Shown here: positions 27,272 through 56,214 of the stretch, one piece after another | How the letters are laid out: every line of letters begins with the position of its first letter | How positions within the stretch are numbered: position 1 is the first letter of the stretch | Source of the DNA: Nitrospirota bacterium | GTDB lineage: Bacteria; Nitrospirota; UBA9217 | Direction of reading: 5' to 3' | Assembly: GCA_963740085.1 (NCBI GenBank) | Contig: CAVUCU010000005.1 | Coordinates: 384,001-448,000, forward strand | Length of the DNA: 64,000 bases | The notes under the pieces: model-generated | The model's input: only the letters and a program-made list of their open reading frames with translations | Database searches by the model: none | Told to the model about the DNA's origin: nothing | Translations under genes and position numbers: made by a program

Positions 27272-27273
27272 TG

Positions 27274-30065: not shown

Positions 30066-30122
30066 GGTCTTCACCTCCGCTGGTTTTTATACCATTTTGA
30101 ATCGACCGCATCTCCGAGGTCA

Positions 30123-30581: not shown

Positions 30582-30617
30582 TGTTACCTCCTCGATGAAT
30601 GCTACTGAATTAAAAAC

Positions 30618-30713
30618 CGAGGGACGAGGATGACCGTTCACTCCGTTCATTCGGACGAGGGGCGCACTCATTCTTGCCCTTTTTGTCCTTCATCCCTCAT
30701 CCATCATCCCTCG
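30618..30713. repeat. heptamer-based palindromic repeat, GGACGAG/CATCCCT family
   Basis: CGAGGGACGAGGATGA left arm and TCATCCCTCATCCATCATCCCTCG right arm; related to 52776-52867. Confidence 0.7.
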
Positions 30714-30717
30714 GATT

Positions 30718-33390: not shown

Positions 33391-33393
33391 ATG

Positions 33394-35172: not shown

Positions 35173-35201
35173 GAATGCTCCAGCACCGATCTAAAATAAA
35201 G

Positions 35202-35293
35202 GCAAAATGAATAACTCAAAATGCAAAGTGCGAAATTAAGGACCTCGCCTCGCTCAAAAAACTTTTGCATTTTTCATTTTGAATTTTGCACTT
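35202..35293. repeat. heptamer-based palindromic repeat, CAAAATG family
   Basis: CAAAATGCAAAGTGCGAAATT left arm and TTTTGCATTTTTCATTTTGAATTTTGCAC right arm; overlaps the nuoE stop. Confidence 0.75.
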
Positions 35294-35762
35294 GCGGTTG
35301 CTCTCCTGCCTTCAATGTTTTCATTTCTTTTACGAGCTTGTCCGGCGTCATCTTGCCGTGTACTGTCTTATTAACGATGATAACCGGAGCGATGCTGCAC
35401 GCGCCGACACAGTTTACCTTTTCAACCGTGAACTTGAGATCTTCCGACGTGTCTTCGCCCGCGGGGATGGCCAGTTCTTTTACCAGGCTGTTGATCAGCC
35501 GATCGGAGCCCTTGACGTGACACGCGGTGCCGCAGCATGCCGTGATCACGTTCCTGCCCCTCGGTTTCAGATGAAACTGCGCATAGAACGTCGCGACGCC
35601 GTAGAACCTCGCAAGCGGTATGTCGAGCTGCTCGGAGATCCAGGTGACCGCGTCTTCACGCAGATAACCGAATTCGCTTTCAAGGTCCTGCAGGATCGAG
35701 ATCAGGTTCCCTTCGTTCTCGCGGTACCGCGAAAGTACGCCTTCCAGTTTTTCTTCCATCAT
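35274..35762 (-). CDS. NuoE/HydC-like [2Fe-2S] subunit, upstream copy
   Basis: GVATFYAQF, CCGTACHVKG and VNCVGACSIAP motifs. Confidence 0.93.
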   Translation of the reverse strand: MMEEKLEGVLSRYRENEGNLISILQDLESEFGYLREDAVTWISEQLDIPLARFYGVATFYAQFHLKPRGRNVITACCGTACHVKGSDRLINSLVKELAIPAGEDTSEDLKFTVEKVNCVGACSIAPVIIVNKTVHGKMTPDKLVKEMKTLKAGEQPQVQNSK

Positions 35763-40753: not shown

Positions 40754-41542
40754 TTACATATCGAGATATGAATGGGCATACATCTTTTTGCCCATGATCA
40801 TCTCCGTGGTCTTGACCGTGTCCATCATGTCCTTGTCGAGCGGATCGATGATGGCAGCCGTCAACCCCTCGTAGATGAGCATGGTGAGAAAGTTCCGGTT
40901 GATGATCGGGCGAACATGCTTCGGGGCACCGTTCGAAATGTTCGAAAGCCCGACCACGGTCTGCATCGGGGGATCGTTCAACTGCTGGAACATCTTAACG
41001 GCACGGATGGCCTGTAGACCCTGGTCCTGCATCGTTGCGAGCTGGAGAATGAGCGGATCAAGGAAGAGATTCTCTAAAGGCACGTCATGCTCCATGGCCC
41101 GGGCCATGATCTCGGCCGCGATTCCGCAGCGGTCCTCGGCATCCGCCGGGATGCTGCCCTTGCCCAGGGTAAGCGCGATGATCTTCGCGTTGTACTTGCC
41201 GGCCAGCTCCATCATCGGAAAACGCTCCGGTTCATTGGACGTGGAGTTGATGATGGGCGCTCCCCACGCGTTGTTGTGCGCCTTGAGTCCTGCTTCCATG
41301 GCCTTTATGTTCGTCGTGTCGAGGCAAAGCGGCTTTTCCACGACTTCCTGCAGGACCTTCACCGCCCAATCCATGAGTTTGGGGCCGTTATCTTCGGCCG
41401 GACCGATGGAAATGTCGATGAAATGCGCGCCCGCCTTGTCCTGTGCCACGGCGAGGTCCTGGAGAGGCTTCGGATCGAACTTCGTGAGGGCCTCACGCAC
41501 CTTCTTGGCGATTACACTGATCTTTTCTCCGATTATTATCAT
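40754..41542 (-). CDS. acsE: methyl-THF:corrinoid Fe-S protein methyltransferase
   Basis: MIIIGEKI, LCLDT, IINST, FLDPL and GLSNISNG pterin-binding TIM-barrel motifs; acs context. Confidence 0.92.
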   Translation of the reverse strand: MIIIGEKISVIAKKVREALTKFDPKPLQDLAVAQDKAGAHFIDISIGPAEDNGPKLMDWAVKVLQEVVEKPLCLDTTNIKAMEAGLKAHNNAWGAPIINSTSNEPERFPMMELAGKYNAKIIALTLGKGSIPADAEDRCGIAAEIMARAMEHDVPLENLFLDPLILQLATMQDQGLQAIRAVKMFQQLNDPPMQTVVGLSNISNGAPKHVRPIINRNFLTMLIYEGLTAAIIDPLDKDMMDTVKTTEMIMGKKMYAHSYLDM

Positions 41543-41655
41543 CGTCAGAAATTTCTCCTTTCAAAATAAGCAAATAGCCATTAAGACACGAGCTGTTTAA
41601 AAACGATCCTAACCACTGGGGTATTTTATTCAGCAACGCAATCTCTTTTTTCTAT

Positions 41656-42546
41656 TTATGTACCGGCAACAAGTCTCAGGAGTTCCTCGGCGGTTTCCTG
41701 ATTGATGCTGCCCTGGTCTCTTGCCACCGAAACTGTTTGTCTGGCCAGTTCTCTATAGAGGCTCGCCAGCTCCGGCGTCCTCTTTTGCATGGCATGCAGG
41801 TGATCACGCACGGTCTGCGCGTCTCCCCGCATGATCGGCCCGGTGAGCGCATCCGGTATCCCGAGGGTCTCAATATTATGAAGCGTCCCCCGGATGAGCG
41901 GCAGCACGGCCTTGAGCGCCTCATTTTTTTCAGCTCCCAGTGCCTGATAGAACTTCAGTCCGTAGTCAACAAGCGCCACAAAGTAGTTCGAGACCGCTAC
42001 CGCGCCCGCGTGGTAGAGTGCCGCTGAATCTTTATCCGGGCTCCACTTCGGCATCACGAGCTCGATACCGCCCAATGCTGCTACGACCTCTCTGGCAAGG
42101 ACCTGCGCTTCAGGGTCCGTTTCGATCCGGAAGTATGAACCGGGTAAGGTTTTAATGCCCTGCTCCCTGCTTGCGAGCGACTGGAGCGGATGGAGCACTG
42201 CCCGATGCGCCCCGGCAAGGCGTGCCGCATCCAGGAGATCAAGCGAATGGGCTCCGGACATATGTACGGCGAGCGAACCGGGCTTTAGACCGCCTCCTGA
42301 TGAGATCTTGTCGCAGGCATTCTTTATCGCCCCATCCGGTGTTGTGATGAAAACGATATCGGCCTTTGACGCTGCCTTCACCACATCCGTTGCCGGCTCT
42401 CCCGCCCCGATAAAGGTTGAGGCCTTTTCCGCCGATACCAGGGAACGCGCTGCGACCGCGGTCACCGTATACCCCGCCCGTTTGAGCAGAAAGCCCACAG
42501 CACTGCCGACACGACCGGCGCCTATGATGGCGATGGATCTTTTCAT
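41656..42546 (-). CDS. Rossmann-like DUF2520 protein, probable PanG-type ketopantoate reductase
   Basis: IIGAGRVG, VHMSGA, HPLQS, YHAGAVAVSNY and LTGPIMRGD motifs; panB nearby. Confidence 0.8.
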   Translation of the reverse strand: MKRSIAIIGAGRVGSAVGFLLKRAGYTVTAVAARSLVSAEKASTFIGAGEPATDVVKAASKADIVFITTPDGAIKNACDKISSGGGLKPGSLAVHMSGAHSLDLLDAARLAGAHRAVLHPLQSLASREQGIKTLPGSYFRIETDPEAQVLAREVVAALGGIELVMPKWSPDKDSAALYHAGAVAVSNYFVALVDYGLKFYQALGAEKNEALKAVLPLIRGTLHNIETLGIPDALTGPIMRGDAQTVRDHLHAMQKRTPELASLYRELARQTVSVARDQGSINQETAEELLRLVAGT

Positions 42547-42551
42547 CCGAA

Positions 42552-42626
42552 CCCCCTCGCCCCGGCCCTCTTCCACTCAGGGCGGAGGTTTCCCCCCTCC
42601 CAGCGGGAAGGGATTCAGTGAGTGGG
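42552..42626. repeat. CCCTCACC-CTCTCCC-GGGAGAGG family, degenerate copy
   Basis: CCCCCTCGCCCCGGCCCTCTTCC and CCCCCTCCCAGCGGGAAGGGATTCAGTGAGTGGG. Confidence 0.65.
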
Positions 42627-42628
42627 CC

Positions 42629-43396
42629 TTACGGTATCAGCTTGTCCAGCACGGCAAAAAAGCTGGTAAGCGCCTTTGAATCAGACGGAAGCTGGATCAG
42701 CGGTTTGCCGTTCAGATCATATTGAAAGATCAGATCATCGGCCGGGACAAATCCCGCAAACTCCACACCCTGTTCGTCAATGACCTGCTGAAGCGTGTTG
42801 TCCTGATCACGCTCCTGGGTGCGGTTCACGATCAGGACCGAGCGTTTGACATTCAGGTTCAGCTCTTTTACCAGCTCGCCGATCCTGCCCGCGGTCATGA
42901 TGCCGCGCACAGAGGAGTCGCTGATGATGAGCAGCAGGTCCGTGTCCTGCGTCGTGCGGCGGGACAGATGCTCGAGACCGGCCTCATTGTCCATGACGGT
43001 AAAGGGATACGAATCGGCCAGCTTGTCCATGTACTTGCGGATGATGTTGTTCGCAGCGCAGTAGCAGCCGGAACCCTCGGGCCTTCCCATTACGAGCAGG
43101 TCGAAGCCCTTCGCCTCGATCAAGGCCTGCTGGATCTGGTAATCGAAGAGCTGCTCCATGCTCATTCCGCCCGGACGGGGCGCCGTGGACTTGATCGCTT
43201 CGAGAGAGGTCTCGCGAAGTTTGCCGACCGTGGCGTGGACCTTCACGCCGAGCACATCGTTCAGGTTCGCGTTTGCATCAGCGTCGACAGCCAGGATCGC
43301 GCCGCGCTTTTTTTCTTTCAAATATCGTATCGTCAAACCGCAGAGGCTTGTCTTGCCAGTGCCGCCCTTGCCTGCAACTGCTATGGTAAAACCCAT
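42629..43396 (-). CDS. cooC: CooC/AcsF-type nickel-insertion ATPase (ACS-associated type)
   Basis: GKGGTGKT, DADANANL, GRPEGSGCYC and DNEAGLEHLSR motifs. Confidence 0.92.
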   Translation of the reverse strand: MGFTIAVAGKGGTGKTSLCGLTIRYLKEKKRGAILAVDADANANLNDVLGVKVHATVGKLRETSLEAIKSTAPRPGGMSMEQLFDYQIQQALIEAKGFDLLVMGRPEGSGCYCAANNIIRKYMDKLADSYPFTVMDNEAGLEHLSRRTTQDTDLLLIISDSSVRGIMTAGRIGELVKELNLNVKRSVLIVNRTQERDQDNTLQQVIDEQGVEFAGFVPADDLIFQYDLNGKPLIQLPSDSKALTSFFAVLDKLIP

Positions 43397-43404
43397 AAAA
43401 CACC

Positions 43405-43481
43405 TTCACCACAGAGGTCACAGAAAAAACTTGATAGAAAAATAGGTGCCGGCGACGTTACTCTGTGTTCTCTCTGGTTAA
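43405..43481. repeat. palindromic intergenic repeat, CCACAGAG/CTCTGTGG family
   Basis: TTCACCACAGAGGTCACAGA left arm and CTCTGTGTTCTCTCTGGTTAA right arm. Confidence 0.8.
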
Positions 43482-44212
43482 TTATTCTTTTTCACTCCAA
43501 ACTTCTTCCTGACCTCTTCGATCTTGCCGCAGGACATCTTACCCTCGGGGCACGGCGCGTACAGACAGCCGGGACCGGATTTCCCGAAGATCGTCGGCGC
43601 CGCTTTTTTTACGTGGGCCAGCATGCGGTCCGCCATTTCCCGGATCTCCCACTGCGCCCGGTTGCAGCACCTGACGCGGAAGAAGTGCAGCAGCTCCCGC
43701 GCGTTCATCGTGACCACGATCTTCGTCTCAGCCGCGTTCGGCAGCAGATACCGCGCATCCTGCTGTCCGGCCTCACCCTTGTACCCGAGTTCCTCAAGCC
43801 GCGTGAGGACTTTCGTATAGTTCTCCTGGGCCTCGGCCATGCATTTTTTAAACTCTTGAACGAGCGCCGGATCCTGTTTGATGCTTGGCGGGATGAGGTA
43901 ATCGAACTGCTCTGCCTTCACATAGCGCTGGCTCTGCTGTGAGTATGAGGCCACGCGGTGGCGAACAAGCTGGTGAGAGCACGCCCGGGAGATGCCTTCG
44001 ATCCCGAAGGTAAACGAAACGTGCTCAATGGGAGAGAGGTGCCCGATTGACGCCAGCTTCTCCACAAAGGCCGCCTGGTCCCTGGCCTCGATCTTGTCTT
44101 TGAGCTCTTCAACACCTGACGGGCTATAGCACAACTTCGCTGCCATGGCCACGACTTCTTCGGGTCCCGGTGTATGCCGAAGGAGAACAACGTTCAATGA
44201 TGCTTCTGGCAT
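43478..44212 (-). CDS. thyX: FAD-dependent thymidylate synthase
   Basis: GHLSPIEH, HQLVRHRVASYSQQSQRY, ARYLLPNA and AQWEIR motifs. Confidence 0.96.
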   Translation of the reverse strand: MPEASLNVVLLRHTPGPEEVVAMAAKLCYSPSGVEELKDKIEARDQAAFVEKLASIGHLSPIEHVSFTFGIEGISRACSHQLVRHRVASYSQQSQRYVKAEQFDYLIPPSIKQDPALVQEFKKCMAEAQENYTKVLTRLEELGYKGEAGQQDARYLLPNAAETKIVVTMNARELLHFFRVRCCNRAQWEIREMADRMLAHVKKAAPTIFGKSGPGCLYAPCPEGKMSCGKIEEVRKKFGVKKNN

Positions 44213-44292
44213 GCTGTCCCCTCCTTTCAGGAGCACCCTCGGGCACCCCATGCAATGAAAAAAAAGGGGGGACCGGATGCCAAGGGATGGTT

Positions 44293-44322
44293 ATTATAAC
44301 GAACAGCTATCTCACGAGTCAA
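44293..44322 (-). promoter_or_regulatory. sigma70-type promoter upstream of thyX
   Basis: TTGACT-N18-TATAAT on the minus strand. Confidence 0.6.
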
Positions 44323-44377
44323 GAAAAATGGAGTGGTTACGAGAAATATTTTTTATTAACTTATAATATTCATTGAT

Positions 44378-44405
44378 AAAAAAACTGCCTCAATCAACAA
44401 GGCAG
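44378..44405 (-). terminator. intrinsic terminator after panB
   Basis: CTGCCT-loop-AGGCAG followed by a 7-T run on the minus strand. Confidence 0.65.
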
Positions 44406-44451
44406 CCGGACCTCTCCGCACAAAAGGTCTATTGGCAATTTCTTTGTTCTA

Positions 44452-45252
44452 TTATTTAAAACTATGTTCTTCTGAAGGGAATTTTCCGCTTTCAACATCC
44501 TGTTTATACTCTGTAACCGCTTTCAGCGCCAGGTCCTTCAGATTAGCGTACTTTTTGACGAACTTGGGCGTGAACCGGTCGAAGAGTCCTAAAAGATCAT
44601 GGAGAACAAGCACTTGACCATCGCAATCCACACCCGCGCCTATCCCAATGGTAGAAATATGGAGCATCTCATGGATTTCCTTTGCCAGGGAGGCAGGCAA
44701 GGCCTCAAGTACGATGGCGAAGGCGCCGGCGTCCTGCACTGCCCAGGCATCAGCAAGCACCTTTAACCGGGCAGCCTCATCCTTGCCTTGGACCTTAAAA
44801 CCGCCGAGGGCGTGCATGTATTGCGGGGTCAGGCCGATATGCGCCACGACCGGGATGCCCGCGGATACGATCGCCCTGATCACATCGGCCATCTGTGACC
44901 CGCCTTCCAGCTTCACGGCCTCCGCACCCGCCTCCTTCAAGAACCTGCCGGCATTCCTGACCGCCTCTTCACGGCTTGTTTGATAGGAAAGGAACGGCAT
45001 ATCACCGACGACCATTGCGGAAACGGTCCCCCGGCTGACCATCTTCGTATGATAGATCATCTCGTCCATGGTGACCGGCAGCGTGCTCGACACGCCCTGC
45101 ACCACCATGCCGAGAGAGTCCCCAACGAGGATCATGTCAATCCCCGCCTGGTCCACGATCTGGGCCGTGGGATAGTCATAGGCCGTAAGCATGGTGATCT
45201 TCTTTCCTTCGGCCTTTTTCTTATAGATGTCGAGAACGGTTGTTTTTGGCAT
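44452..45252 (-). CDS. panB: 3-methyl-2-oxobutanoate hydroxymethyltransferase
   Basis: MLTAYD, LVGDSLG, VKLEGG, HIGLTPQ and [14 protein letters not shown] motifs. Confidence 0.97.
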
Positions 45253-45380: not shown

Positions 45381-46352
45381 CTACACTGCCGGCCTGGGAT
45401 ACAGCCCGGCTGCCTTCACGATCCCTTCGATAGCGCTTTCCCATTCGATAGCCTGGATATGTACGCCCCTGACACCCGGTGTTTCGAGGGCCTGGTGAAT
45501 AAGTTCGATCGTGATCTTGATGCCCTCCTGCTCCTGAAGTTCCCGGGCCTTCTTTTTATCCTCGCCGGCGGCTTCCTTGGCCTTGTTCATCCGGTCGATC
45601 AGGGCCTTCGGCACGGACACCCCGGCAACCGAGGCATCCATGTACTTCAGCATCATGGCGCTCTTCGGCACGATGATCCCGGCAAGGATCGCCGTGCGCT
45701 CGTGGAGACCCATGTTCCGGATCTTTGCCATCTGCCCGCGGAAAAGCTCCATATCATAAATGCCCTGGGTCTGGATGAAATCCGCGCCGGCATTCACTTT
45801 TTTCATGAGATTGATCGGCCTGAAGTCGATGGGGTCGGCCATCGGCGTCCAGGAAGCCCCGATAAAGAACTTCGGCGCCACTTCTATGGGATCGCCGCCA
45901 TCCTGCTTGCTCTCGTCGCGCATCTTCTTCATAATGCCGACAAGCTGGCACGTATCCACGTCGTAGACGTTCTTTGCGCCCGGGTGGCCCTTGAGCCTGC
46001 CTGCGGCGCTGAACTTCTGGTGATCGCCGGCGATGCAAAGACAGTTCTTAAGCCCGAGCGCAGCGCCCCCGAGAAGGTCGGCCTGAATGGCAATGCGGTT
46101 CCGGTCCCTGCAGGTCATCTGCATGACCGGCTCCAGACCTTGCTGGAAAGCGATGGCCGCTGCAGCGATGCTCGAGATGCGGACGACCGCGGTCTGGCAA
46201 TCCGTGATGTTCGCTGCGTCGCAGAAGCCCTTCAGCTGCTGCGCTTTTTTGATGACTTCATGGGGATCGGCGCTCATCGGAGGGCCAAGTTCCGCCGTCA
46301 CCGCAGGGTTGCCGCTGGCAAGTACTTTTTCAAGTGTGCTTCCGCTTTTCAT
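45381..46352 (-). CDS. metF: methylenetetrahydrofolate reductase, flavin subunit
   Basis: VTAELGPP, NITD, QMTCRDRNRIAIQ, GDH and AGADFIQTQ motifs. Confidence 0.95.
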   Translation of the reverse strand: MKSGSTLEKVLASGNPAVTAELGPPMSADPHEVIKKAQQLKGFCDAANITDCQTAVVRISSIAAAAIAFQQGLEPVMQMTCRDRNRIAIQADLLGGAALGLKNCLCIAGDHQKFSAAGRLKGHPGAKNVYDVDTCQLVGIMKKMRDESKQDGGDPIEVAPKFFIGASWTPMADPIDFRPINLMKKVNAGADFIQTQGIYDMELFRGQMAKIRNMGLHERTAILAGIIVPKSAMMLKYMDASVAGVSVPKALIDRMNKAKEAAGEDKKKARELQEQEGIKITIELIHQALETPGVRGVHIQAIEWESAIEGIVKAAGLYPRPAV

Positions 46353-46389
46353 TCTCCATGCCTCCTAAAGACAAAGGTCAAAATTTTTT

Positions 46390-46469
46390 TACCACAGAAT
46401 CGCGGAGGTCGCGGAGAACTGCTTAAAGCCTTGGAGCTTCTCTCCGTGTCTCTGTGTCTCCGTGGCGAA
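46390..46469. repeat. palindromic intergenic repeat, CCACAGAG/CTCTGTGG family variant
   Basis: ACCACAGAATCGCGGAGGTCGCGGAGA left arm and TCTCCGTGTCTCTGTGTCTCCGTGG right arm. Confidence 0.7.
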
Positions 46470-46471
46470 TA

Positions 46472-47173
46472 TTACTTCCCTGCCTTCGCCTCTTCCTTTT
46501 CCTCGTACGCCCGTATGTGCTCCATTGATATCCTGCGCGGTCCGCCGTCTCGCGACGTGGACCAGTTGCGCGGAGGTATGACCGCAGAAAGTTTCTCAAG
46601 GGTGCCAAGCATCTTCATCCGTTCAACGATCAGGTACCAGGCGCAGTCCACGTCCTTGCTGATCTCGCACTTGCCTTTGTTCGTGCCGCCGCAGGGTCCG
46701 TTCATAAGCGTCTTGGCGCAGCGTGCGACAGGACAGATGCCGCCGGTCATGTGTACAATGCAGTCTCCGCATCCCGCACAAAGTTCCTTGAAAACGCCCG
46801 GCGCTTCGACAGCACCGTAGAAGGAGGTGTTGATGCCGGGATATACGGGGATCGTTCCGGTCCGGTCGGACAGGAAGTTCACGCCCACACCGCAGGCAGT
46901 GGAGAGCACGAGGTCGTACTTCTTCACCTCGTCCATCACCGGGTCAAAATACTCCGGCTCGCAGTGGCGCATCACGCCGAGGTGATTCACCGTCATCTGC
47001 TTTCCCTCCTGTGATGCCTTCATCCTGATGAGGGAAGCGATGGTCTCGGCCTCCTTCTCGCCGCCCGCATGGCAGATGGCCACGCAGGTGTTGCAGCCGA
47101 ACACCAGGACCTTTTTGAAGTCCTTCACCATGTCCCATATTTCTTCGATTGGTTTTTGCGATCCAACGATCAT
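46472..47173 (-). CDS. metV: methylenetetrahydrofolate reductase Fe-S/Zn subunit
   Basis: GCNTCVAIC, CAGCGDC, CPVARCAKTLMNGPCGG, CE and CAW cysteine motifs; directly upstream of metF. Confidence 0.92.
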   Translation of the reverse strand: MIVGSQKPIEEIWDMVKDFKKVLVFGCNTCVAICHAGGEKEAETIASLIRMKASQEGKQMTVNHLGVMRHCEPEYFDPVMDEVKKYDLVLSTACGVGVNFLSDRTGTIPVYPGINTSFYGAVEAPGVFKELCAGCGDCIVHMTGGICPVARCAKTLMNGPCGGTNKGKCEISKDVDCAWYLIVERMKMLGTLEKLSAVIPPRNWSTSRDGGPRRISMEHIRAYEEKEEAKAGK

Positions 47174-47213
47174 AGGTAATACTCCTTTATGAAAAGCTCA
47201 TTTGCATAAGCCG

Positions 47214-49310
47214 TTATTTACCGGCCCTCATGCCTATCTTCTTCACCCTCTCCGAAAACTCCGCGCACACCGCCCGGTAAGGATTACCTCCGTTGGTCAA
47301 GACCGCGGAGAGGATCTCCACCCGGCCGGGCTCGATCTTGAGCATGCCGAGCAGGTCCTGAACGCGCTTCACCCGAGCGTTCACGCGCGGAGCGATGTCC
47401 TTATACTTGCAGGTCCCGTCGTTGCAGCGCACTACCGCAACGCCGTCGGCACCGGACTCAAATGCCTTCAGCATGTCCAGGATATCGATCCTGCTCGTGC
47501 AGTGCACCGGTATGGTGCGCACGTTCTTTGGAAGATCGAGGCCGAGAATGCCTGCATGGTGCGTACACATAAGGGCGACAACAACCGGTTCCTGTCGTCC
47601 GGGGTCGACCGTGCCGATGAGAGCGGGCATCGTGTTTCTGATCTCCCGGACATCGTAGCTCACCATGCTGATGGCCTGGGCAGGACATTCCGGCGCGCAG
47701 AGGCCGCAGGCCTGGCAGTACTCGGGCCTGATCTCGGACACCGACGTCACGACCGGCGCGTCGTAGGGACAGATGCGCAGACAGGTGAGGCAAGCCATAC
47801 ATTTCTTCTGGTCCACCACCGCGCCGCCGCCGCAACTACGGCACCTGCCAGCTTCCTCGAGCGCCTCTTTCTCGGTAAAACCCTCTTCGAAATGCTCCAT
47901 GGTCTTGACGCGGACCTCGGGGGCAAGATGCCTGATCTTCATGCGCGGCTGTTTGGCGATCTTATCAACGACCTCCGACGGCATCTGCGCGATCTTTTCC
48001 TTTTCCTGCACGGGCAGCCTGCCCTCGATGGTCTCCCCTTGAATGAAGAGATGCATTGCCAGGGCGGCCCGGCGTCCATTCGCGACAGCGGCGATCGCCG
48101 AGCCGGGGCCGGTCACGACCTCGCCTGCGACGAAGATGTTTCTGCCCGTGCTCATCTGGGTCGCCTGGTTCCAGGTGACACGGCCTTTGTCCATCTTCAC
48201 CGAACTGTCATTGAACAGATCGTTCTTAGACATCTGACCGATCGTTATGATGATCGTCTCAGCCTTCAGCACGGTAGTCACGCTGTTGTCGAATGTCGGT
48301 GCAAAGCGCTTGTTCGAGTCGAAAACGGACAGGACCTTCGTGACTTCGAGGCCCACGACCTTGCCGTTCTCGCGGACAACTGCCTTTGGTCCCCAGCGGT
48401 AATTGATCTTGATCGCCTCTTCAACAGCCTCGTCAACTTCCCATTTCCAGGCAGGGATCTCCTCTTCATTCTCAAGACAGACCATCTCGACGTTCTGAAC
48501 GCCAAGCCTGCGGGCCGAGCGGGCAACGTCCATGGCTACATTGCCGCCGCCGATCACCAGCACTTTTTTGCCGAGCGCCGGCTTGCGGCCGAATGCGACA
48601 TCTTCCAAATAAGGAATAGCAAGCAGCACGCCGGGTCCTTCCACGCCGGGAATATTCAGCGAGCGGCTGAGGGAAAGGCCGATGGCCACGAGCACGGCAT
48701 CGTGCTTCTTGGCGAGATCATCGAGCCTCGCGTCTTTGCCGACTTCGAAGTTCGTCTTGACCTCAACGCCTTTGGAAATAACGTCATCGATATCTTCTTT
48801 CAGCACTTCTCTGGGCAAACGGTAGGGAGGGATCGCGGCCGCGAGCATGCCTCCGAGGACCGGATGCTTCTCATAAAGCGTGACGTTGTAGCCGAGGTCC
48901 GCGAGGTCCCGTGCCGCGGTCAGGCCCGAAGGGCCGGAGCCGATAATGCCGATGCTCTTGCCCCTGGTCTTCTGGACAAGTTTTCGCCTGGCGCGCCGAT
49001 AGTCCTTGGACTTCTCAATGGCAAACCGCTTCAAATGCCGGACCGCCAGCGGCTCGTCCACCCCGCAGCGCCTGCACGACTGCTCGCAGGGATGATGACA
49101 GATCATGGAGCAGACCGACGCGATCGGGTTCACCGACGTGATGACCTCGAAGGCCTCGGTATATTTGCCCTGGGCGATCAGACCCACATAGGCCTGAACG
49201 TCAGTATGCGCCGGGCATGCGGCACGGCACGGAGAATAGGGCCTTGTTTCCTTGATCGCAGCGCCGTAGGGCTGGTACGCTGTCGGTGCGCAGTTCGTTT
49301 CCGTTGCCAT
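47214..49310 (-). CDS. GltD/NfnB-like FAD oxidoreductase fused to a 2x[4Fe-4S] ferredoxin and an MvhD-like domain
   Basis: PCRAACP and CSMICHHPCEQSC, GSGPSG, GGGNVAMD, EAGRCRSC, CMACLTCLRICP, CQACGLCAPECP; then C, CTSRID, GADGV, CNDGTCKY of MvhD. Confidence 0.88.
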   Translation of the reverse strand: MATETNCAPTAYQPYGAAIKETRPYSPCRAACPAHTDVQAYVGLIAQGKYTEAFEVITSVNPIASVCSMICHHPCEQSCRRCGVDEPLAVRHLKRFAIEKSKDYRRARRKLVQKTRGKSIGIIGSGPSGLTAARDLADLGYNVTLYEKHPVLGGMLAAAIPPYRLPREVLKEDIDDVISKGVEVKTNFEVGKDARLDDLAKKHDAVLVAIGLSLSRSLNIPGVEGPGVLLAIPYLEDVAFGRKPALGKKVLVIGGGNVAMDVARSARRLGVQNVEMVCLENEEEIPAWKWEVDEAVEEAIKINYRWGPKAVVRENGKVVGLEVTKVLSVFDSNKRFAPTFDNSVTTVLKAETIIITIGQMSKNDLFNDSSVKMDKGRVTWNQATQMSTGRNIFVAGEVVTGPGSAIAAVANGRRAALAMHLFIQGETIEGRLPVQEKEKIAQMPSEVVDKIAKQPRMKIRHLAPEVRVKTMEHFEEGFTEKEALEEAGRCRSCGGGAVVDQKKCMACLTCLRICPYDAPVVTSVSEIRPEYCQACGLCAPECPAQAISMVSYDVREIRNTMPALIGTVDPGRQEPVVVALMCTHHAGILGLDLPKNVRTIPVHCTSRIDILDMLKAFESGADGVAVVRCNDGTCKYKDIAPRVNARVKRVQDLLGMLKIEPGRVEILSAVLTNGGNPYRAVCAEFSERVKKIGMRAGK

Positions 49311-49340: not shown

Positions 49341-49413
49341 GATGCGTGAAAGCGTCGCTGCGAAACACCTCCCTGCGTGCACGCATACACGCATTTTCGC
49401 ATTCACGCGCTCA
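49341..49413. repeat. octamer-based palindromic repeat (ATGCGTGA/CACGCAT)
   Basis: GATGCGTGAAAGCGTC left arm and CACGCATACACGCATTTTCGCATTCACGC right arm, adjoining the folE stop. Confidence 0.65.
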
Positions 49414-49974
49414 CTCTTTCTTCGTCAACAGCTCGAGCATCTCCATGCGGGTGGATTCCTTGGTCCGGAAGGTGCCCCGCACCGCGGACGTGACCACCCT
49501 GGAGCCGGGCTTCTTCACTCCGCGCATGCTCATGCAGAGGTGCTCGGCATCGATAACCACCATCGCGCCCTTGGGCTTCAGGTGGCTCACGATCAGATCG
49601 ATGAACTGGGCCGTGAGCCGCTCCTGCACCTGGGGCCGTTTGGCAAAGACCTCCAGCGCCTTGGCAAGCGCGCTTATTCCCACGATCTTTCCAGCGCCCG
49701 GGATGTATGCGATGTGGGCCCTGCCGAAGAACGGCAGGAGATGATGCTCACAGACGGAATAAAAGGGGATATCGCGGATCATCACCATCTCATCATGGTT
49801 CTCGCCGGCCATGGGAGTAAGGAGTTTCTCGGTGTCCATGGAGATGCCCGTGAAGATCTCCCCATACATCTCAGCTACCCGCTTGGGTGTATCCTTGAGT
49901 CCCGGCCGGTCGGGGTTCTCGCCGATACCCTCGATGATGAGGCGAACGCCTTTTTCTATTTTTTTAGTATCCAT
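49411..49974 (-). CDS. folE: GTP cyclohydrolase I
   Basis: [25 protein letters not shown] and HLCMSMRG motifs. Confidence 0.96.
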
Positions 49975-49985
49975 GCGTTTTAGAC

Positions 49986-50100
49986 AAATCCTAAATTCGA
50001 ATATCGAAATCCGAAATAAATCCAAGGCAGCGATATCTCAGGCTTTGAATTTTGGTCATTTGATATTGTTTAGAATTTCGTGCTTCGAATTCAGGATTTC
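49986..50100. repeat. heptamer-based palindromic repeat, AAATCCGAAA family
   Basis: AAATCCTAAATTCGAATATCGAAATCCGAAA left arm and TTTAGAATTTCGTGCTTCGAATTCAGGATTT right arm. Confidence 0.8.
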
Positions 50101-50645
50101 GCGTCTATGACCCTTTTCTCCGTCACGATCTTTATCACCGGCACGTCATGCGGATCCGTCGGGACCAGCGGAACGATCTGTGTGTCGAATGCCAGCGCCA
50201 CGGTCGTCTTCGTAAAAGAGCTCAGCAGCTTGTCGTAAAATCCGGCGCCATATCCCAACCGGTTGCCCCGCCCGTCAAAAGCCGCACCGGGCACAAGGAT
50301 GAGATCGATCTCGTCAAGTTCGACCGGGCTGTTCTCATGGGGCTCGGGAATGCCCCACGCTCCGGGAGCAACGTCATTGTCCCAGTCCGCGATCTCGTAC
50401 AGTGCAAGTTTGGCGCCGGTTACCTTCGGAAGGGCGACTCTCTTGCCAAAGGTCAATGCGCGCCGGATCATGGAACCCGTGTCCACTTCGCTCCGGAATG
50501 ATGCAAAGAACAGAACAATGCGCGCTGCCTTGAATTCAGGAAGAGAAAAGAGCCTTTCTTCGATCTCCAGGCTTTTCGCCGTTCGTTGTGCCGGCAGGAG
50601 GCTGTCCCTTGCGGCGAGCACCTTTTTTCTGATCTCTTTTTTCAA
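50091..50645 (-). CDS. 5-formyltetrahydrofolate cyclo-ligase
   Basis: SEVDT, WGIPEP, VPGAAFD, RLGYGAGFYD and HD motifs; TTG start. Confidence 0.93.
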   Translation of the reverse strand: MKKEIRKKVLAARDSLLPAQRTAKSLEIEERLFSLPEFKAARIVLFFASFRSEVDTGSMIRRALTFGKRVALPKVTGAKLALYEIADWDNDVAPGAWGIPEPHENSPVELDEIDLILVPGAAFDGRGNRLGYGAGFYDKLLSSFTKTTVALAFDTQIVPLVPTDPHDVPVIKIVTEKRVIDAKS

Positions 50646-50654
50646 GTGAAGGAA

Positions 50655-51434
50655 TTACTTCTTCATCAACTGGTCGAGCGCGGTCTTGATGACCTTCGCT
50701 TCATCCACGGCGCGAGGTGAGGCATCGTATGGCGATCTGCCGTCAAGGTCCGCCTTGACCGTGTCGTCGGCGTAGCTCATGAACCCGAGTACCTTCATGC
50801 CGGAGAGGTGCTTCGCGATGAATTCCTTGTCCGACTCCTGTTTGATCTTGTTGCCGACGATGAAGACATCTTTGATGCCGAGTCCCATTGCCAGGCTCTC
50901 CACGTGCCGCGCGGTCTGAAGGCTCCGCTGACCGGGTTCCACGACAACAATGAAGGCATTTACGCCGCTTGCCGTGCCGCGGGTCAGGTGCTCGATGCCC
51001 GCCTCCATATCAAGGATGACCACCTCGTCCCGGCGCAGGATGAGGTGACTGATAAGACGGCGCAGCAGTACGTGTTCCGGACAATAACAGCCTGCCGCAG
51101 CTTCTTTCGATTTTCCCATGACCAGAAGCCGTACGCCCTCATGCTGGATCCCGTACGCCTCCGGGATATCGTCCACCCTGGGATTGATGCTGAACATGCC
51201 GCCAGGGGTGCCGGGCCGGGATCCGGTTCGCTCCTCGATCATGTCCGACTGCTCGGCGAGCGGCAGGGCCTTTGATGCGATCTCAGGCGAGATCCCGAGC
51301 GCAGAGGCCAGATTCGCGTCCGGATCAGCGTCTACAGCCAGCACCTTTTTGCCGTCGGCTGCATAGAGCCGCGCCAAAAGACCTGCCAGCGTGGTTTTCC
51401 CTACACCGCCCTTGCCGGTAATAGCTATTTTCAA
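50655..51434 (-). CDS. cooC: CooC nickel-insertion ATPase (CODH-maturation-like type)
   Basis: KIAITGKGGVGKTT, DADPDANLA, NPRVDDIP, GCYCPE and DMEAGIEHL motifs; TTG start 6 nt from GAGGAG (ATG at 51440 is an alternative). Confidence 0.92.
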   Translation of the reverse strand: MKIAITGKGGVGKTTLAGLLARLYAADGKKVLAVDADPDANLASALGISPEIASKALPLAEQSDMIEERTGSRPGTPGGMFSINPRVDDIPEAYGIQHEGVRLLVMGKSKEAAAGCYCPEHVLLRRLISHLILRRDEVVILDMEAGIEHLTRGTASGVNAFIVVVEPGQRSLQTARHVESLAMGLGIKDVFIVGNKIKQESDKEFIAKHLSGMKVLGFMSYADDTVKADLDGRSPYDASPRAVDEAKVIKTALDQLMKK

Positions 51435-51460
51435 ACGCATCTCCTCTGGGTTAGAGAGAC

Positions 51461-51490
51461 AAAATAACATCTATGATGCTGAAGTGTCAA
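51461..51490 (-). promoter_or_regulatory. sigma70-type promoter at the head of the C1 cluster
   Basis: TTGACA-N18-TATTTT with TG extension on the minus strand. Confidence 0.6.
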
Positions 51491-51730: not shown

Positions 51731-52813
51731 ATGAACATTCCAAAGATCAACATTAAATCCATGGGCCGGGACGAGCTCCAGGCCGACCTCGTCAACAGGG
51801 GGCTTAAAAAATTTCGCGCCGGCCAGATCCTTACCTGGGTATACACGCATTGCGTCCGCTCCTTTGAGGAGATGACAAATATTCCGAAAATGGAGCGCGC
51901 CCTCCTTTCGTCAATCTTCTTTATCTCGACGCCAAACATCGTCAGGACAGAGATCTCCAAGGATGGAACGAGAAAATTTCTTTTTGCGCTTGAGGATACG
52001 CACACCGTCGAGAGCGTCCTGATCCCTGACGAAGACCGGCAGACGCTCTGCATCTCTTCGCAGGTAGGATGTCAACAGGCGTGTCGTTTCTGTCTTACCG
52101 GGAGCAGGGGCTTTACAAGAGATCTCAGGGCCTTCGAGATCGTTGATCAGGTGCTGGAAATATCGTGCATCCTGCGCCGGGAGGAAAAACGCGGTATTAC
52201 GAACATCGTGCTCATGGGCATGGGCGAGCCGCTGTCGAACTTCGATGAAGTGTTGAAAGCGCTGCAGGTGATCGCCTCGGACAAGGGATTGGGATTTGCC
52301 ACGCGACGCGTGACCGTATCAACGAACGGCCTCGTGCCGGAGATCGAAAAACTGGGAAGGTCGGGAGTGAAGGTAAATCTCGCGATCTCGCTCAATGCCA
52401 CGACCGACGAGGTGCGGGACAGGATCATGCCCGTGAACCGGCGCTACCCTATCAAGGACCTCCTTGCAGCCTGCCGGCGCTATCCGCTTGAACCGCGGCG
52501 AAGGATCACTTTTGAATATGTGATGTTACAGGGGGTGAATGACTCGGCGGAAGACGCCCGACGGCTTGCCAGACTGCTCAGAGGGATCAAGTGCAAGGTG
52601 AACCTTATTCCCTTTAATCCTTTTCCCGGGAGCGTGTTTAACAGGCCTGGCGACACGACCGTGCTTAGCTTTCAAAAGGTCCTTCTGGACAACCGCTATA
52701 TAACACCGGTGCGCGAGTCGCGCGGCAGGGACATCTCGGCGGCATGCGGACAGTTACGGGAAAGAGTGGATCTCACGAAGGAAATGATGGACGATGAACG
52801 ATCGCTTCGCTAG
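51731..52813 (+). CDS. rlmN: 23S rRNA m2A2503 / tRNA methyltransferase
   Basis: CISSQVGCQQACRFC, MGMGEP, NLIPFN and DISAACGQL motifs. Confidence 0.97.
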   Translation: MNIPKINIKSMGRDELQADLVNRGLKKFRAGQILTWVYTHCVRSFEEMTNIPKMERALLSSIFFISTPNIVRTEISKDGTRKFLFALEDTHTVESVLIPDEDRQTLCISSQVGCQQACRFCLTGSRGFTRDLRAFEIVDQVLEISCILRREEKRGITNIVLMGMGEPLSNFDEVLKALQVIASDKGLGFATRRVTVSTNGLVPEIEKLGRSGVKVNLAISLNATTDEVRDRIMPVNRRYPIKDLLAACRRYPLEPRRRITFEYVMLQGVNDSAEDARRLARLLRGIKCKVNLIPFNPFPGSVFNRPGDTTVLSFQKVLLDNRYITPVRESRGRDISAACGQLRERVDLTKEMMDDERSLR

Positions 52814-53280: not shown

Positions 53281-54108
53281 TTATTTTTCCTTAAGCAGAT
53301 CGAGAAAGCTCTGGATCGTCGTGAGCTTGCGTTCTGACTGCGAATAGAGCTTTGATGAAAAGAGCGCTGTGGCCGCGTGGCCCGCAAGCATGGTGAACAG
53401 CTCGTAGTCAACCGGCGTGAACGCTTCCTTCTGGACCAGGAGTTTGTAGATGACGATCACGCCGATCACATGCTCCTTGATCTTGAGCGGGATAACGACC
53501 AGGGGGTTGAGATAGTCGACGCTCTTCAGGTCCTTGGGATCTCCTTCGCGGTAGAACGATTCGCCCGCTTTCGCCGCCCCGCCGATGGTCCCGTCGCCCA
53601 GCTTGACGCTTGCCCGTGCTTCCGGCCCCATGCCTTCCTGTGCCACGATCGTCATTTCGTTCGTCTTTTCGTCGAGCATCATGATCGAGAACTCCTCTGC
53701 GCCGATCAGGTTCATGACGATCTCGAGGATGATCTTGAGGCATTCGCTGAAATCAAGGGTGGAATGAAGCTGATAGCTTGCCACGTACAGGTTTGCCAGG
53801 TTGTTGTTCTCCGCCTCCACCTCGATGTAGCGGTTCGCGAAGTCCTTGTTCTCCTCTTCCACCACGCGGTAGCGGTCGATCAGTTGTTTATTTTCTTCCT
53901 CAAGGAACTTGATCCTCTCTTCCATGCTATGCGTCAGGAAACTGCCTTCCCTGCCCGAGAATTTGGTCACTTCTTCAAACTGGGCGACCCGGTATCTGAG
54001 CTTCTCGTTCTCCTTCAAGAGCGCCTGGGTAAACTCCTCGCCCTTTTTGAATACCTGGAGAAACTCTTCAACCTTTTTCGTGATCGATGCAGAGTCCTTT
54101 TCCATCAT
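53281..54108 (-). CDS. coiled-coil plus GAF domain protein
   Basis: N-terminal coiled coil, NLYVASYQLHSTLD, C-terminal GAF (VIPLKIKEHVIGVI, LAGHAATAL). Confidence 0.82.
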   Translation of the reverse strand: MMEKDSASITKKVEEFLQVFKKGEEFTQALLKENEKLRYRVAQFEEVTKFSGREGSFLTHSMEERIKFLEEENKQLIDRYRVVEEENKDFANRYIEVEAENNNLANLYVASYQLHSTLDFSECLKIILEIVMNLIGAEEFSIMMLDEKTNEMTIVAQEGMGPEARASVKLGDGTIGGAAKAGESFYREGDPKDLKSVDYLNPLVVIPLKIKEHVIGVIVIYKLLVQKEAFTPVDYELFTMLAGHAATALFSSKLYSQSERKLTTIQSFLDLLKEK

Positions 54109-54170
54109 GCCCTCCTGTTATGGCCGCTCAGGAACCGAAGCTGCTGAAGCAAACAACGCGCAGCACCGTA

Positions 54171-54201
54171 ATTATAGTTGAGTCTTGAAAAATTATCAAG
54201 A
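54171..54201 (-). promoter_or_regulatory. internal promoter for GAF-cheY with overlapping palindrome
   Basis: TTGATA-N17-TATAAT; TCTTGA-N7-TCAAGA inverted repeat over the -35 box. Confidence 0.6.
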
Positions 54202-54236
54202 AGGAATTGCAGCAAGAATTATCGCGACACGCATCA

Positions 54237-55316
54237 CTATGACGCCGCCCGTTTAGGGTTGCACCTCGCCTCAATCTCCGTTGCCATCTTGCCCAGCGTC
54301 AGCACCTTGTCCACGAGTCCCGTGCGGATGGCCTCCTGCGGCATGCCGAAGACAACGGCGCTCTCTTCGCTCTCAGCGAGGCACTGGCCCTGCTTGCCCT
54401 TGATGGCGATCACTCCTTCGACGCCGTCGTTACCCATCCCGGTAAGAACGACGCCGAGGGCGGCCGGGCCGCAGGCCTCGGCAACGGACACCATCATGCG
54501 GTCGGCGGAGGGAATGTACTTGTCCGACGGGTTCCGCGGAGCAAGCTCGATCACCAGCCCGCTGCGGGTCTTCTTGACGATGAGGTGATGCCCGCCGGGG
54601 GCAATGTGCACCGTCCCCGCCTTCACCCGGTCTCCGGCAGCGGCCTCGCTCACGATAAGCGGCGAGAGCTTGTTCAGCCGCTGGGCGAAGCTCCGGGTGA
54701 ATCCGGCCGGCATGTGCTGGGAGATCACGATGCCGGCGTTGAATTCGGCGGGAAGTGTGGTCAGGATAGCCTGGATCGCCGGCGGCCCGCCGGTGGACGA
54801 AGCGATCGCCACCACGTCGACCGGCCCGTGCTCCCGCGGCATCTCATCCTCTTTCCTCGCCGGGAGCGGAACGTGCTCACGGGCGAGAAGGTCGATCGTG
54901 GACTTCACCTTGGTCATCTCAAGGTTCAATACCGAATGGACCTTGGACACAAGGCTGTCCCTGACGCTTTCGATGCTCTTCGAGATGCGGGCCTCGGGCT
55001 TGGGCAGAAAATCGATGGCACCCAGTTCCAGTGCGCGAAAAACGCTGTGGCTGTCGGAAAGTGACGAGATGACGAGCACGGGCGTCGGTCGCTCTTTCAT
55101 GAGCCACCGCAGGAAGGAAAATCCGTCCATGTTCGGCATCTCAAGGTCAAGGGTTATCACATCGGGCTTGAAGCGCAGTGTCTTGGCGATGGCGTCCACG
55201 CCGTCCGTGGCGCTCCCCGCCACCTCGATCCCCGGGTCGCTCGCGAGCATCTCCCCGATCACCGTGCGATTATACGCCGAATCGTCGACAACAAGGGCCC
55301 TGATCTTCTTGGTCAT
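54237..55316 (-). CDS. cheB: chemotaxis methylesterase with receiver domain
   Basis: TLDLEMP, ASSTGG, QHMP and LTGMGNDG motifs. Confidence 0.95.
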   Translation of the reverse strand: MTKKIRALVVDDSAYNRTVIGEMLASDPGIEVAGSATDGVDAIAKTLRFKPDVITLDLEMPNMDGFSFLRWLMKERPTPVLVISSLSDSHSVFRALELGAIDFLPKPEARISKSIESVRDSLVSKVHSVLNLEMTKVKSTIDLLAREHVPLPARKEDEMPREHGPVDVVAIASSTGGPPAIQAILTTLPAEFNAGIVISQHMPAGFTRSFAQRLNKLSPLIVSEAAAGDRVKAGTVHIAPGGHHLIVKKTRSGLVIELAPRNPSDKYIPSADRMMVSVAEACGPAALGVVLTGMGNDGVEGVIAIKGKQGQCLAESEESAVVFGMPQEAIRTGLVDKVLTLGKMATEIEARCNPKRAAS

Positions 55317-55347
55317 AGCGATCTTCCTTTTCCGGTCTGCGCGCTCC

Positions 55348-56214
55348 TCACGACCCCGACCTTGTCCGGAGCGGCTTCTGGTAAACCATATCGTTTTTAA
55401 GCGTGCGAAGCACGAACGCGTTCGAGATGTTGATCAGCGATTCAGAGTGTCCGAGAAGCAGGTAGCCGCCTTCGCGGAGCTTGCCCGAGAAGCTCTCGAT
55501 CACTTTTTTCTTGGCTTCTTTGTCGAAATAGATGATCACGTTCCGGCAGAATATGATGTCCATGTTGCTGATCAAGTTGGCCTTGAGCGGATCCAGCAGG
55601 TTCAGGGAGCTGAACGAAACGAGTTCTTTGACCTTATCAACGATCCGGTAATTGCCCTTGTCCTCTTCGATGAAATACTTCGCGAGCATTTCGGGGCTCG
55701 TCACGCGGTGAGCGCTCGTCTTGTACACCCCCTTGCGCGCCGTGTGCAGGACCCGCTGATTGATGTCGCTGCCGAGGATCTCCACCTGCCAGTTGCGCCA
55801 CCAGTCCCCGGATTCGAACAGCAGCATGGCGATGGTGTAGGGTTCCTCTCCCGTGGAGCAGCCGGCGCTCCAGATCCGAAGGGCCTTCCGGTCGGAAAGT
55901 CGTTCGCGCAGTTCAGGGAGGATCTCCTCTGAAAATGCACGGAGTTGCGGACTTTCCCGGAAAAAGTAGGTCTCATTCGTGGTGAGATTGTCCACGAGAA
56001 TGGTGAGCTCTTCCTCCCGCTTCCGGTCATAGCGGAGGAAGTGGTAGTACTCCTCAAAGGTCTTGAGATGATGCTGCTCAAGCCTGCGCGAAAGCCGGCG
56101 TTCAAGAAGGAACTTGGACGCATCGTCAAAAAATATCCCGCAGTAGCCGTGGATAAAATCCCGAAGGAGCCTGAACACATCGTCCGGCAGCGGAATGGTC
56201 TGCTCTTCAAACAT
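55348..56214 (-). CDS. cheR: chemotaxis methyltransferase
   Basis: TTNETYFFRE, WSAGCSTGEEPY, IFCRNVIIYF and LGHSE motifs. Confidence 0.96.
   Translation of the reverse strand: MFEEQTIPLPDDVFRLLRDFIHGYCGIFFDDASKFLLERRLSRRLEQHHLKTFEEYYHFLRYDRKREEELTILVDNLTTNETYFFRESPQLRAFSEEILPELRERLSDRKALRIWSAGCSTGEEPYTIAMLLFESGDWWRNWQVEILGSDINQRVLHTARKGVYKTSAHRVTSPEMLAKYFIEEDKGNYRIVDKVKELVSFSSLNLLDPLKANLISNMDIIFCRNVIIYFDKEAKKKVIESFSGKLREGGYLLLGHSESLINISNAFVLRTLKNDMVYQKPLRTRSGS

Follow-up and report, generated by a model that had tools for sequence, protein, structure and literature searches.

Methylene-tetrahydrofolate (methylene-THF) reduction is the most exergonic step of the Wood-Ljungdahl pathway, and its electron supply and energy conservation have been debated since the 1970s. 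Four types of methylene-THF reductase (MTHFR) have been distinguished in acetogens, namely MetF alone, MetVF, RnfC2-MetVF and HdrCBA-MvhD-MetVF (PMC8760232). The partner chemistry of the last of these, type IV, is still to be established (PMC8760232). HdrA is described as the site of NADH oxidation in the Moorella thermoacetica complex (PMC8760232), and the HdrA of this species contains an inserted GltD domain, the part where flavin adenine dinucleotide (FAD) and NAD(P)H are bound, which is expected to be the NAD(P)H site of the MTHFR complex (PMC9430772). Here we describe a different arrangement in a 64,000-nucleotide stretch (the window) of contig CAVUCU010000005.1 from a Nitrospirota bacterium (assembly GCA_963740085.1, positions 384,001 to 448,000). 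Directly upstream of metV and metF lies one gene for a 698-amino acid protein, called the fusion below, in which a GltD/NfnB-like flavoprotein, a 2x[4Fe-4S] ferredoxin domain and an MvhD domain are joined. We consider it likely that the fusion is the NADH-linked electron-input subunit of a MetVF-type MTHFR, docking on MetV through its MvhD domain and wiring its FAD to MetF. A full-text literature search, with subscription journals and supplements outside its reach, returned no published GltD-ferredoxin-MvhD protein beside metVF. In their accessible parts, genome papers on Actinobacteria, Chloroflexi, anaerobic methanotrophic (ANME) archaea and Desulfobacterium report no arrangement other than plain or Hdr-type clusters and, for ANME archaea, HdrA with NfnB inserts.

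The fusion gene and its exchange with hdrCBA-mvhD

The initial annotation had read the protein as three-part, and Pfam domain boundaries bear this out (Table 1), with two Fer4/Fer4_21 stretches at residues 497-549 and FlpD (MvhD; PF02662) at residues 584-693 (83.9 bits against a cut-off of 22.3). In an alignment of 65 family members, C28, C32, C71, C75, E76, C79, C490 and C493 are invariant, as are the eight cysteines of the ferredoxin domain (C504, C507, C510, C514; C532, C535, C538, C542), and C67, C582, C604, C629 and C634 are at least 90% conserved. The last four, C582, C604 (in HCTSR), C629 and C634 (both in CNDGTC), line up with the cysteines of solved MvhD chains, so the earlier statement that the MvhD cysteines are kept is correct. 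This domain is the presumed [2Fe-2S] site and docking adaptor. When compared with solved structures, the N-terminal half matched Nfn/Stn-type and NfnB chains (E 3e-91 to 1e-56), its Fe-S domain being nearest to the counterpart in the Stn/Nfn-type chains 9bov_A, 8oh5_C and 9n5u_A, and residues 585-697 matched MvhD chains from solved Mvh-Hdr complexes. The ferredoxin domain resembles the C-terminal ferredoxin domain of HdrA, and the NCBIfam HdrA2 C-terminus (HdrA ferredoxin domain plus fused MvhD) matches residues 487-695. For residues 24-551 the nearest NCBIfam model is NF009410 (PRK12771, NAD(P)-binding protein), at 457.3 bits and under its curated cut-off of 516 bits.

Open reading frames (ORFs) and Pfam also confirmed that the fusion ends 40 nucleotides before metV and that metF follows. 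Shine-Dalgarno-like sites precede all three genes: the fusion has a TAGGAG ribosome-binding site 6-7 nucleotides before its ATG, and metV has its own AAAGGAG. A consensus scan found no terminator-like site in the spacer and one past panB, at 44407-44383. As the annotation had noted, the metVF cluster lacks hdrABC and rnfC-like genes, judged by a Pfam scan of the window. The fusion adjoins folE and metV, and no NfnA or GltB partner gene lies next to it. No solved structure matching MetV was found in the search against solved structures.

Linkage to metVF was surveyed at 80 loci, one genome per species, with homologues 62-95% identical to the fusion. At 65 of them a same-strand metV is located up to 1 kb downstream, and at four more the distance is 1.1-3.6 kb. 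Five loci had less than 1.5 kb of sequence left and were uninformative, and six showed no metVF despite at least 1.5 kb of room. The linkage of homologues to metVF was thus upheld, metV following the fusion in 69 of the 75 informative loci. The spacer has grown to 0.4-3.6 kb in about 12 relatives (including loci L012, L015, L017, L022, L029, L034, L042, L051 and L065), where it holds unrelated ORFs of 62-256 amino acids that vary by locus. It is a hot spot for insertions, and the gene order stays intact.

The distribution of the fusion was then set against that of the Hdr partner. Three queries (the MetV family, fusion residues 441-698 and a Nitrospirota HdrB) were run on the same 301 Nitrospirota genomes, each at least 80% complete, and the results were cross-tabulated by eye from the listed coordinates, with relatives counting as non-independent samples. 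MetV was present in 219 genomes. The C-terminal part of the fusion was present in 54, where it adjoins metV in 47, is unlinked in three (all of one genus) and is unassigned in four; two of these four had no MetV among the matches listed, and the other two had the fusion at a contig end with no MetV found. Within the organism's own family (56 genomes and its own, 57 in all), 34 genomes carry the fusion and 20 a close HdrB (at least 58% identity), and no genome carries both. Three have neither, two of them being without MetV as well. In 16 of the 20, HdrB and metV share a contig, with HdrB 4-6 kb upstream; in the other four the genes are on separate contigs of fragmented assemblies. Two fusion genomes of the family hold only distant HdrB-like genes (26-35% identity), elsewhere. 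The organism's own genus includes six further genomes with the fusion and one with Hdr, and another genus has nine against five. The two cassettes coexist closely only in one genus of another family (three genomes) and in one further genome, G257. In the latter they stand 5 kb apart (locus L185; G257:C64:12001-30000), as hdrC-hdrB-hdrA-mvhD-metV-metF and as a 645-amino acid fusion followed by metV-metF.

The Hdr-type genome of the same genus, G010, is 100% complete and reads cooC, 5-formyl-THF cyclo-ligase, folE, hdrC-hdrB-hdrA-mvhD, metV, metF, panB, thyX, cooC, DUF2520, acsE. Its flanking proteins are 62-90% identical to those of the window, MetF 86% and MetV 72%. By its synteny, this locus is an in-situ replacement in which hdrCBA-mvhD occupies the position of the fusion. 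Such sister genomes, which differ at the locus just by the fusion or hdrCBA-mvhD, amount to a natural swap experiment. In a quick FastTree phylogeny of MetV, five Hdr-linked proteins including that of G010 form one clade (support 0.968) and 44 fusion-linked proteins another (0.941). The clades follow partner type regardless of host genus; a single linked row, L062, falls outside both. Taken together, the synteny, the either/or distribution and the same-genus replacement strongly support the earlier suggestion that the fusion stands in for Hdr as the partner of MetVF.

We also searched the organism's own genome (3.46 Mb, seven contigs, 98.5% complete) for other partners. Its genes include sat-aprBA-qmoABC, dsrMKJOP-like genes and those for an Rnf complex. 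These genes, the Wood-Ljungdahl cluster and the nearest relatives of the fusion, which are metagenome-assembled genomes (MAGs) of Nitrospirota/Thermodesulfovibrionia, indicate a Nitrospirota sulfate reducer with the Wood-Ljungdahl pathway. Its metF is the sole MTHFR gene. The genome contains no hdrABC, its CCG proteins being DsrK and two lone HdrD-like proteins. The thioredoxin-reductase-like HdrA core is absent, with a Nitrospirota HdrA matching only QmoA and QmoB in blastp, and HdrB and HdrC orthologues are likewise absent, Nitrospirota HdrA, HdrB and HdrC queries matching only Qmo subunits. The fusion and QmoB are the only proteins with FlpD domains. The sole above-cut-off RnfC_N match belongs to the rnf operon on a different contig, so there is no rnfC2 candidate. 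No Mvh-type hydrogenase is present; the hydrogenases are one periplasmic-type enzyme and one group-3b-like cytoplasmic enzyme with its own NAD(P) subunit. Since, in addition, both formate dehydrogenases have their own NuoEF-like modules, the genome offers no other candidate partner for MetVF, and no canonical hdrABC-mvhD elsewhere in it takes that place.

Predicted electron donor and proposed electron path

An acidic residue at the end of strand beta2 of a Rossmann fold usually marks specificity for NAD over NADP. NfnB (4ylf_B, 5jca_L), the Stn-type chains (8oh5_C, 9bov_A, 9n5u_A) and the genome's own 472-amino acid GltD paralogue have Y-R-R-(S/T) after beta2. At the same site C-L-E-(S/N/T/G) stands in the fusion, in three other GltD-ferredoxin-MvhD proteins and in five long HdrA proteins that carry GltD inserts, and conservation of C278, L279 and E280 across the family alignment is 90% or higher. 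With C-L-E in place of Y-R-R at the 2'-phosphate site, the motif predicts that the fusion uses NADH, not NADPH. The initial annotation had called the protein NAD(P)H-linked; the NADH half of that claim is retained and the NADPH half is given up. The contrast between C-L-E and Y-R-R may also be useful as a sequence marker for NADH-linked GltD modules, which databases now label 'glutamate synthase beta' or 'formate dehydrogenase beta'.

The same comparison bears on ancestry. The GltD domain of the fusion is 39-42% identical to the GltD insert of HdrA proteins of 1470-1530 amino acids, and HdrA-type proteins with such an insert precede mvhD-metV-metF in metagenome loci (L112 and L126, among the matches listed). 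Moreover, in Hdr-type clusters the HdrA C-terminal ferredoxin domain and the MvhD after it run collinear with fusion residues 494-693. On the simplest reading, the fusion looks like a Moorella-type HdrA-MvhD ('Moorella-type' being assigned here by architecture and length) that keeps the GltD insert, the ferredoxin domain at the C-terminus and the MvhD part but no longer the HdrA flavin core or HdrBC. The claim of a distinct MTHFR architecture is therefore kept with respect to the four published types (PMC8760232) and modified in one respect, as the fusion appears to be derived from the Moorella-type arrangement, not unrelated to it. The fusion also points to these three parts (GltD insert, C-terminal ferredoxin domain and MvhD) as the possible minimal core that the large Moorella-type HdrA needs for its function.

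In the proposed path, NADH would reduce the GltD-like domain's FAD by hydride transfer, and electrons would pass through the N-terminal [4Fe-4S] clusters to the 2x[4Fe-4S] ferredoxin domain and on to the [2Fe-2S] cluster of the fused MvhD. With this domain docked on MetV, the MetV clusters would hand the electrons to the MetF flavin and so to methylene-THF. The reverse direction may operate during acetyl-CoA oxidation. The locus thus probably encodes a compact NADH input for MTHFR at the site that a four-gene Hdr-MvhD partner holds in sister genomes.

A rival explanation keeps the same complex, nested in the reading above, and differs only in mechanism: the GltD/NfnB-type FAD would bifurcate. 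Electrons from two NADH would then divide between a high-potential branch (ferredoxin domain, MvhD and MetV to methylene-THF) and a low-potential branch (N-terminal [4Fe-4S] clusters to ferredoxin). The nearest solved relatives of the N-terminal half are indeed bifurcating Nfn/Stn-type chains (9n5u_A, 9bov_A, 8oh5_C, 4ylf_B, 5jca_L), the Cys-Glu pair of its Fe-S domain aligns with the NfnB pair, and two Fe-S arms leave one flavin. Glutamate synthase and dihydropyrimidine dehydrogenase, however, are non-bifurcating despite having this fold and these clusters, and the nucleotide motif of the fusion is unlike that of the NADPH-bifurcating NfnB. Published precedent also falls on both sides: the replaced Hdr module has been proposed, without proof, to bifurcate, whereas the added NADH module of Acetobacterium woodii does not (PMC8760232). 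Rnf, a possible user of reduced ferredoxin, is present, but it was found in 54 of the 57 family genomes whichever cassette they carry and so does not separate fusion-type from Hdr-type genomes. Physiologically, confurcation would solve the uphill oxidation of methyl-THF in an acetate-oxidising sulfate reducer. We regard a bifurcating complex as possible and rather doubtful, and the same tentative standing applies to its reversible equation, 2 NADH + methylene-THF + oxidised ferredoxin -> 2 NAD+ + methyl-THF + reduced ferredoxin. If it were true, the fusion would be a minimal natural answer to the question, long pursued, of how this Wood-Ljungdahl step is energetically coupled, in a cassette swapped with hdrCBA-mvhD between close sulfate reducers. 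Among complexes of the fusion with MetVF, we somewhat favour the linear, non-bifurcating wire.

Wider distribution, alternative roles and the surrounding genes

Fusions of the same Pfam architecture extend beyond close relatives. Diverged forms (35-51% identity) precede metV(-metF) in four other Nitrospirota genomes, and five more have a diverged fusion before metV as judged by coordinates. In a Thermodesulfobacteriota sample, 32 of 301 genomes matched the query, mostly through hdrA-mvhD-metVF clusters; seven true fusion-like loci were examined, and metV-metF comes after the fusion in five of them and not in two. Approximately 35 clusters (at 50% clustering) of proteins of 640-705 amino acids share the fusion architecture at 35-46% identity, their named members coming from Spirochaetota, Bacillota and Chloroflexota MAGs. 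A metagenome scan drew on generic Rossmann patterns, and with only a handful of full-length relatives among its 80 listed loci it supplies examples, not frequencies. Among the matches listed, locus L128 (1-4338) reads mvhA-mvhD-fusion (762 amino acids)-metV, and two loci (L107, 3826-9102; L110, 10-4669) have a nuoE-like gene and a 1035-1041-amino acid NuoF::GltD fusion (Complex1_51K + NADH_4Fe-4S + Fer4_20 + Pyr_redox_2) directly before metV-metF. Judged by its domains and position, this pair is a further MetVF partner design outside the four published types. Two other listed loci (L151, 2005-6676; L161, 5956-9865) hold a split version, GltD-Fd of 597-598 and MvhD of 131-136 amino acids, adjoining [NiFe]-hydrogenase small and large subunit genes and without metVF, which suggests an NADH-linked Mvh-type hydrogenase without HdrA.

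Several of these observations weigh against the role proposed for the fusion. The split modules beside hydrogenase genes imply that the module is not specific to MetVF. The six unlinked homologues in the linkage survey share 63-66% identity with the query, and a quick IQ-TREE phylogeny groups them in a single clade (SH-aLRT 100) that lies inside the linked ones; their neighbours are rubrerythrin, racemase or tRNA synthetase genes. In three of these genomes metVF lies elsewhere, behind a canonical hdrC-hdrB-hdrA(~1010 amino acids)-mvhD, so the fusion there must have another role or act in trans. The small ORFs in enlarged spacers imply that tight translational coupling is not required. The HdrA of G010 has no Fer4_20/GltD insert, as is true of Hdr-type HdrA in these Nitrospirota, and the two cassettes may consequently use different donors and not be strictly equivalent. 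Finally, NADH specificity is a prediction from the motif rule. Two further genomes of the unlinked clade, of unstated completeness, showed no MetVF; one has acetyl-CoA synthase (ACS) and is probably incomplete, and the other is also without ACS. We also ruled out that the unlinked clade's hdrCBA-metVF clusters, for want of an mvhD of their own, use the MvhD of the fusion. These clusters carry mvhD genes with one in-frame TGA inside the FlpD match (G001:C33:17837-18205, G003:C38:2105-2473, G005:C32:4878-5246), where the TGA may encode selenocysteine, as in VhuD.

Orthologues away from metVF, and unrelated ORFs between the fusion and metV, would also be expected if the fusion were a free-standing NADH oxidoreductase (for ferredoxin or a similar carrier) that shares an operon with a ferredoxin-dependent, type II-like MetVF and forms no stable complex with it. 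Purified MetVF of several acetogens is active with reduced ferredoxin alone (PMC8760232), which fits this explanation. It does not account as easily for the fused MvhD, known from solved Mvh-Hdr complexes as an electron adaptor between subunits and not as a carrier-binding domain, or for MetV clades that track partner type. Electron transfer from NADH to ferredoxin is also uphill unless coupled, and the fusion alternates one for one with hdrCBA-mvhD, whose products in Sporomusa ovata interact with MetVF (PMC9430772). We therefore consider a free-standing enzyme improbable, and a subunit docked on MetV remains the preferred reading.

Still less probable, to the point of being a marginal option, is service in trans to another enzyme, such as a hydrogenase, an Hdr-like or Qmo/Dsr component, or a formate dehydrogenase with the fusion as its FdhB-like subunit. 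Labels from the Joint Genome Institute (JGI) name several homologues formate dehydrogenase (NADP+) beta subunit, the split modules and locus L128 place related proteins beside hydrogenase genes, and the genome has a lone Fer4_8+2xCCG protein. Among all these enzymes, though, only metVF shows conserved linkage to the fusion. In the organism itself, an FdhB role was rejected, both selenocysteine-type fdhA genes adjoining their own NuoE/NuoF-like partners, and a hydrogenase-partner role was rejected because there is no Mvh-type enzyme and the cytoplasmic hydrogenase brings its own NAD(P)-binding subunit. The operon of this group-3b-like [NiFe]-hydrogenase (G000:C1:1372764-1376744) comprises a Fer4_22 protein, an NAD_binding_1/DHODB Fe-S protein and the small and large subunits; a second [NiFe] large-subunit gene (C1:175531-177087) contains two in-frame TGA codons.

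The fusion, metV and metF belong to a minus-strand Wood-Ljungdahl supercluster that runs from cooC, 5-formyl-THF cyclo-ligase and folE through these three genes to panB, thyX, cooC, DUF2520 and acsE, and continues with acsD, acsC, acsB, two tandem sets of nuoE-like, nuoF-like and selenocysteine-type fdhA genes, and fhs (Table 1). The two formate dehydrogenase modules (24602-35762, minus strand) are split by genes for cNMP-binding and CBS-domain proteins. The DUF2520/Rossmann-like (F420_oxidored-like) gene adjoining acsE (41656-42576, minus strand) is a member of the Wood-Ljungdahl cluster that is kept in relatives, and a gene of this type stands between metV and metF in another Nitrospirota genome (L184:3824-4720). 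Upstream of the one-carbon cluster are genes for a GAF-domain protein, CheB and CheR, the latter two for chemotaxis (53281-56214, minus strand), and rlmN on the plus strand (51731-52813).

Table 1. Features of the fusion-metVF locus and its flanks, in window coordinates
Feature	Position	Strand	Basis
Fusion gene, 698 aa: GltD/NfnB-like part + 2x[4Fe-4S] ferredoxin domain + MvhD domain	47214..49310	-	ORF, Pfam
N-terminal Fe-S domain, Fer4_20, residues 26-102	49005..49235	-	Pfam, E 1.1e-14
Pyr_redox_2 FAD/NAD(P) domain, residues 120-412	48075..48953	-	Pfam, E 3e-29
C278-L279-E280, end of strand beta2 of the nucleotide Rossmann fold	48471..48479	-	Alignment
C490/C493 pair and 2x[4Fe-4S] ferredoxin domain	47664..47843	-	Pfam, family alignment
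MvhD/FlpD domain, residues 582-693, four Cys	47232..47567	-	Pfam, alignment to solved MvhD chains
40-nt spacer, fusion stop to metV start, with metV ribosome-binding site	47174..47213	-	
metV, 233 aa, Fe-S/Zn subunit of MetVF-type MTHFR	46472..47173	-	DUF5981/MetV C-terminal domain, E 1.7e-35
metF, 323 aa	45381..46352	-	MTHFR, E 3.6e-34
Upstream flank: cooC-like (50655-51470), 5-formyl-THF cyclo-ligase (50091-50645), folE (49411-50025)	49411..51470	-	
Downstream flank: panB, thyX, cooC-like, DUF2520, acsE	40754..45252	-	
nuoE-like genes of the two formate dehydrogenase modules	29045-29512; 35274-35762	-	
nuoF-like genes of the two modules, with 2x[4Fe-4S]	27274-29052; 33394-35172	-	
FdhA, 890 aa, one in-frame TGA, probably selenocysteine	24602-27271; 30718-33390	-	
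fhs, after the formate dehydrogenase modules	22751-24592		

Comparison with known systems

Based on this comparison, we regard the fusion with MetVF as a candidate fifth type of MTHFR, widespread in uncultured Nitrospirota and Thermodesulfobacteriota. With three genes only, it is suited to heterologous expression and structure work. Type IV (HdrCBA-MvhD-MetVF; M. thermoacetica, S. ovata) has in common with it the MetV-MetF core and an MvhD element directly before metV. Both also have a GltD-type FAD/NAD(P)H domain (in Moorella within HdrA; PMC9430772), an HdrA-like C-terminal 2x[4Fe-4S] domain before MvhD, and C-L-E. In contrast, the fusion lacks the thioredoxin-reductase-like flavin domains of HdrA, is not accompanied by HdrB (CCG) or HdrC, and is one polypeptide where type IV has four.

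The remaining relatives share single elements. The NfnB/StnA/GltD small-subunit family has the Fer4_20 Fe-S domain and the two-Rossmann FAD/NAD(P)H domain, but the fusion differs from it in having C-L-E instead of Y-R-R, in its added ferredoxin and MvhD domains and in having no NfnA/GltB partner. HdrA2 and QmoB-type proteins show a similar order of parts, with a 2x[4Fe-4S] domain and then a fused MvhD placed after the flavoprotein, and the genome's own QmoB matches fusion residues 503-693 at 26% identity. However, their flavin domain is of the HdrA thioredoxin-reductase type, not GltD, and their partners are HdrBC or QmoC/AprAB, not MetVF. Canonical MvhD/FlpD links Mvh hydrogenase (or Fdh) to HdrA, whereas this genome has neither an Mvh-type hydrogenase nor HdrA.

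Type II (MetVF alone) has no dedicated redox partner gene, in contrast to the conserved redox gene directly upstream of metVF here. In type III (RnfC2-MetVF, A. woodii), as proposed here, a single added subunit beside metVF gives the NADH site that MetF and MetV lack (PMC8760232). RnfC2 is a NuoF/RnfC-type flavin mononucleotide protein; the fusion is an FAD protein of GltD/NfnB type, carries an MvhD adaptor and has no RnfC-like neighbour. By analogy, the RnfC2 of A. woodii is nevertheless the closest functional counterpart of the fusion.

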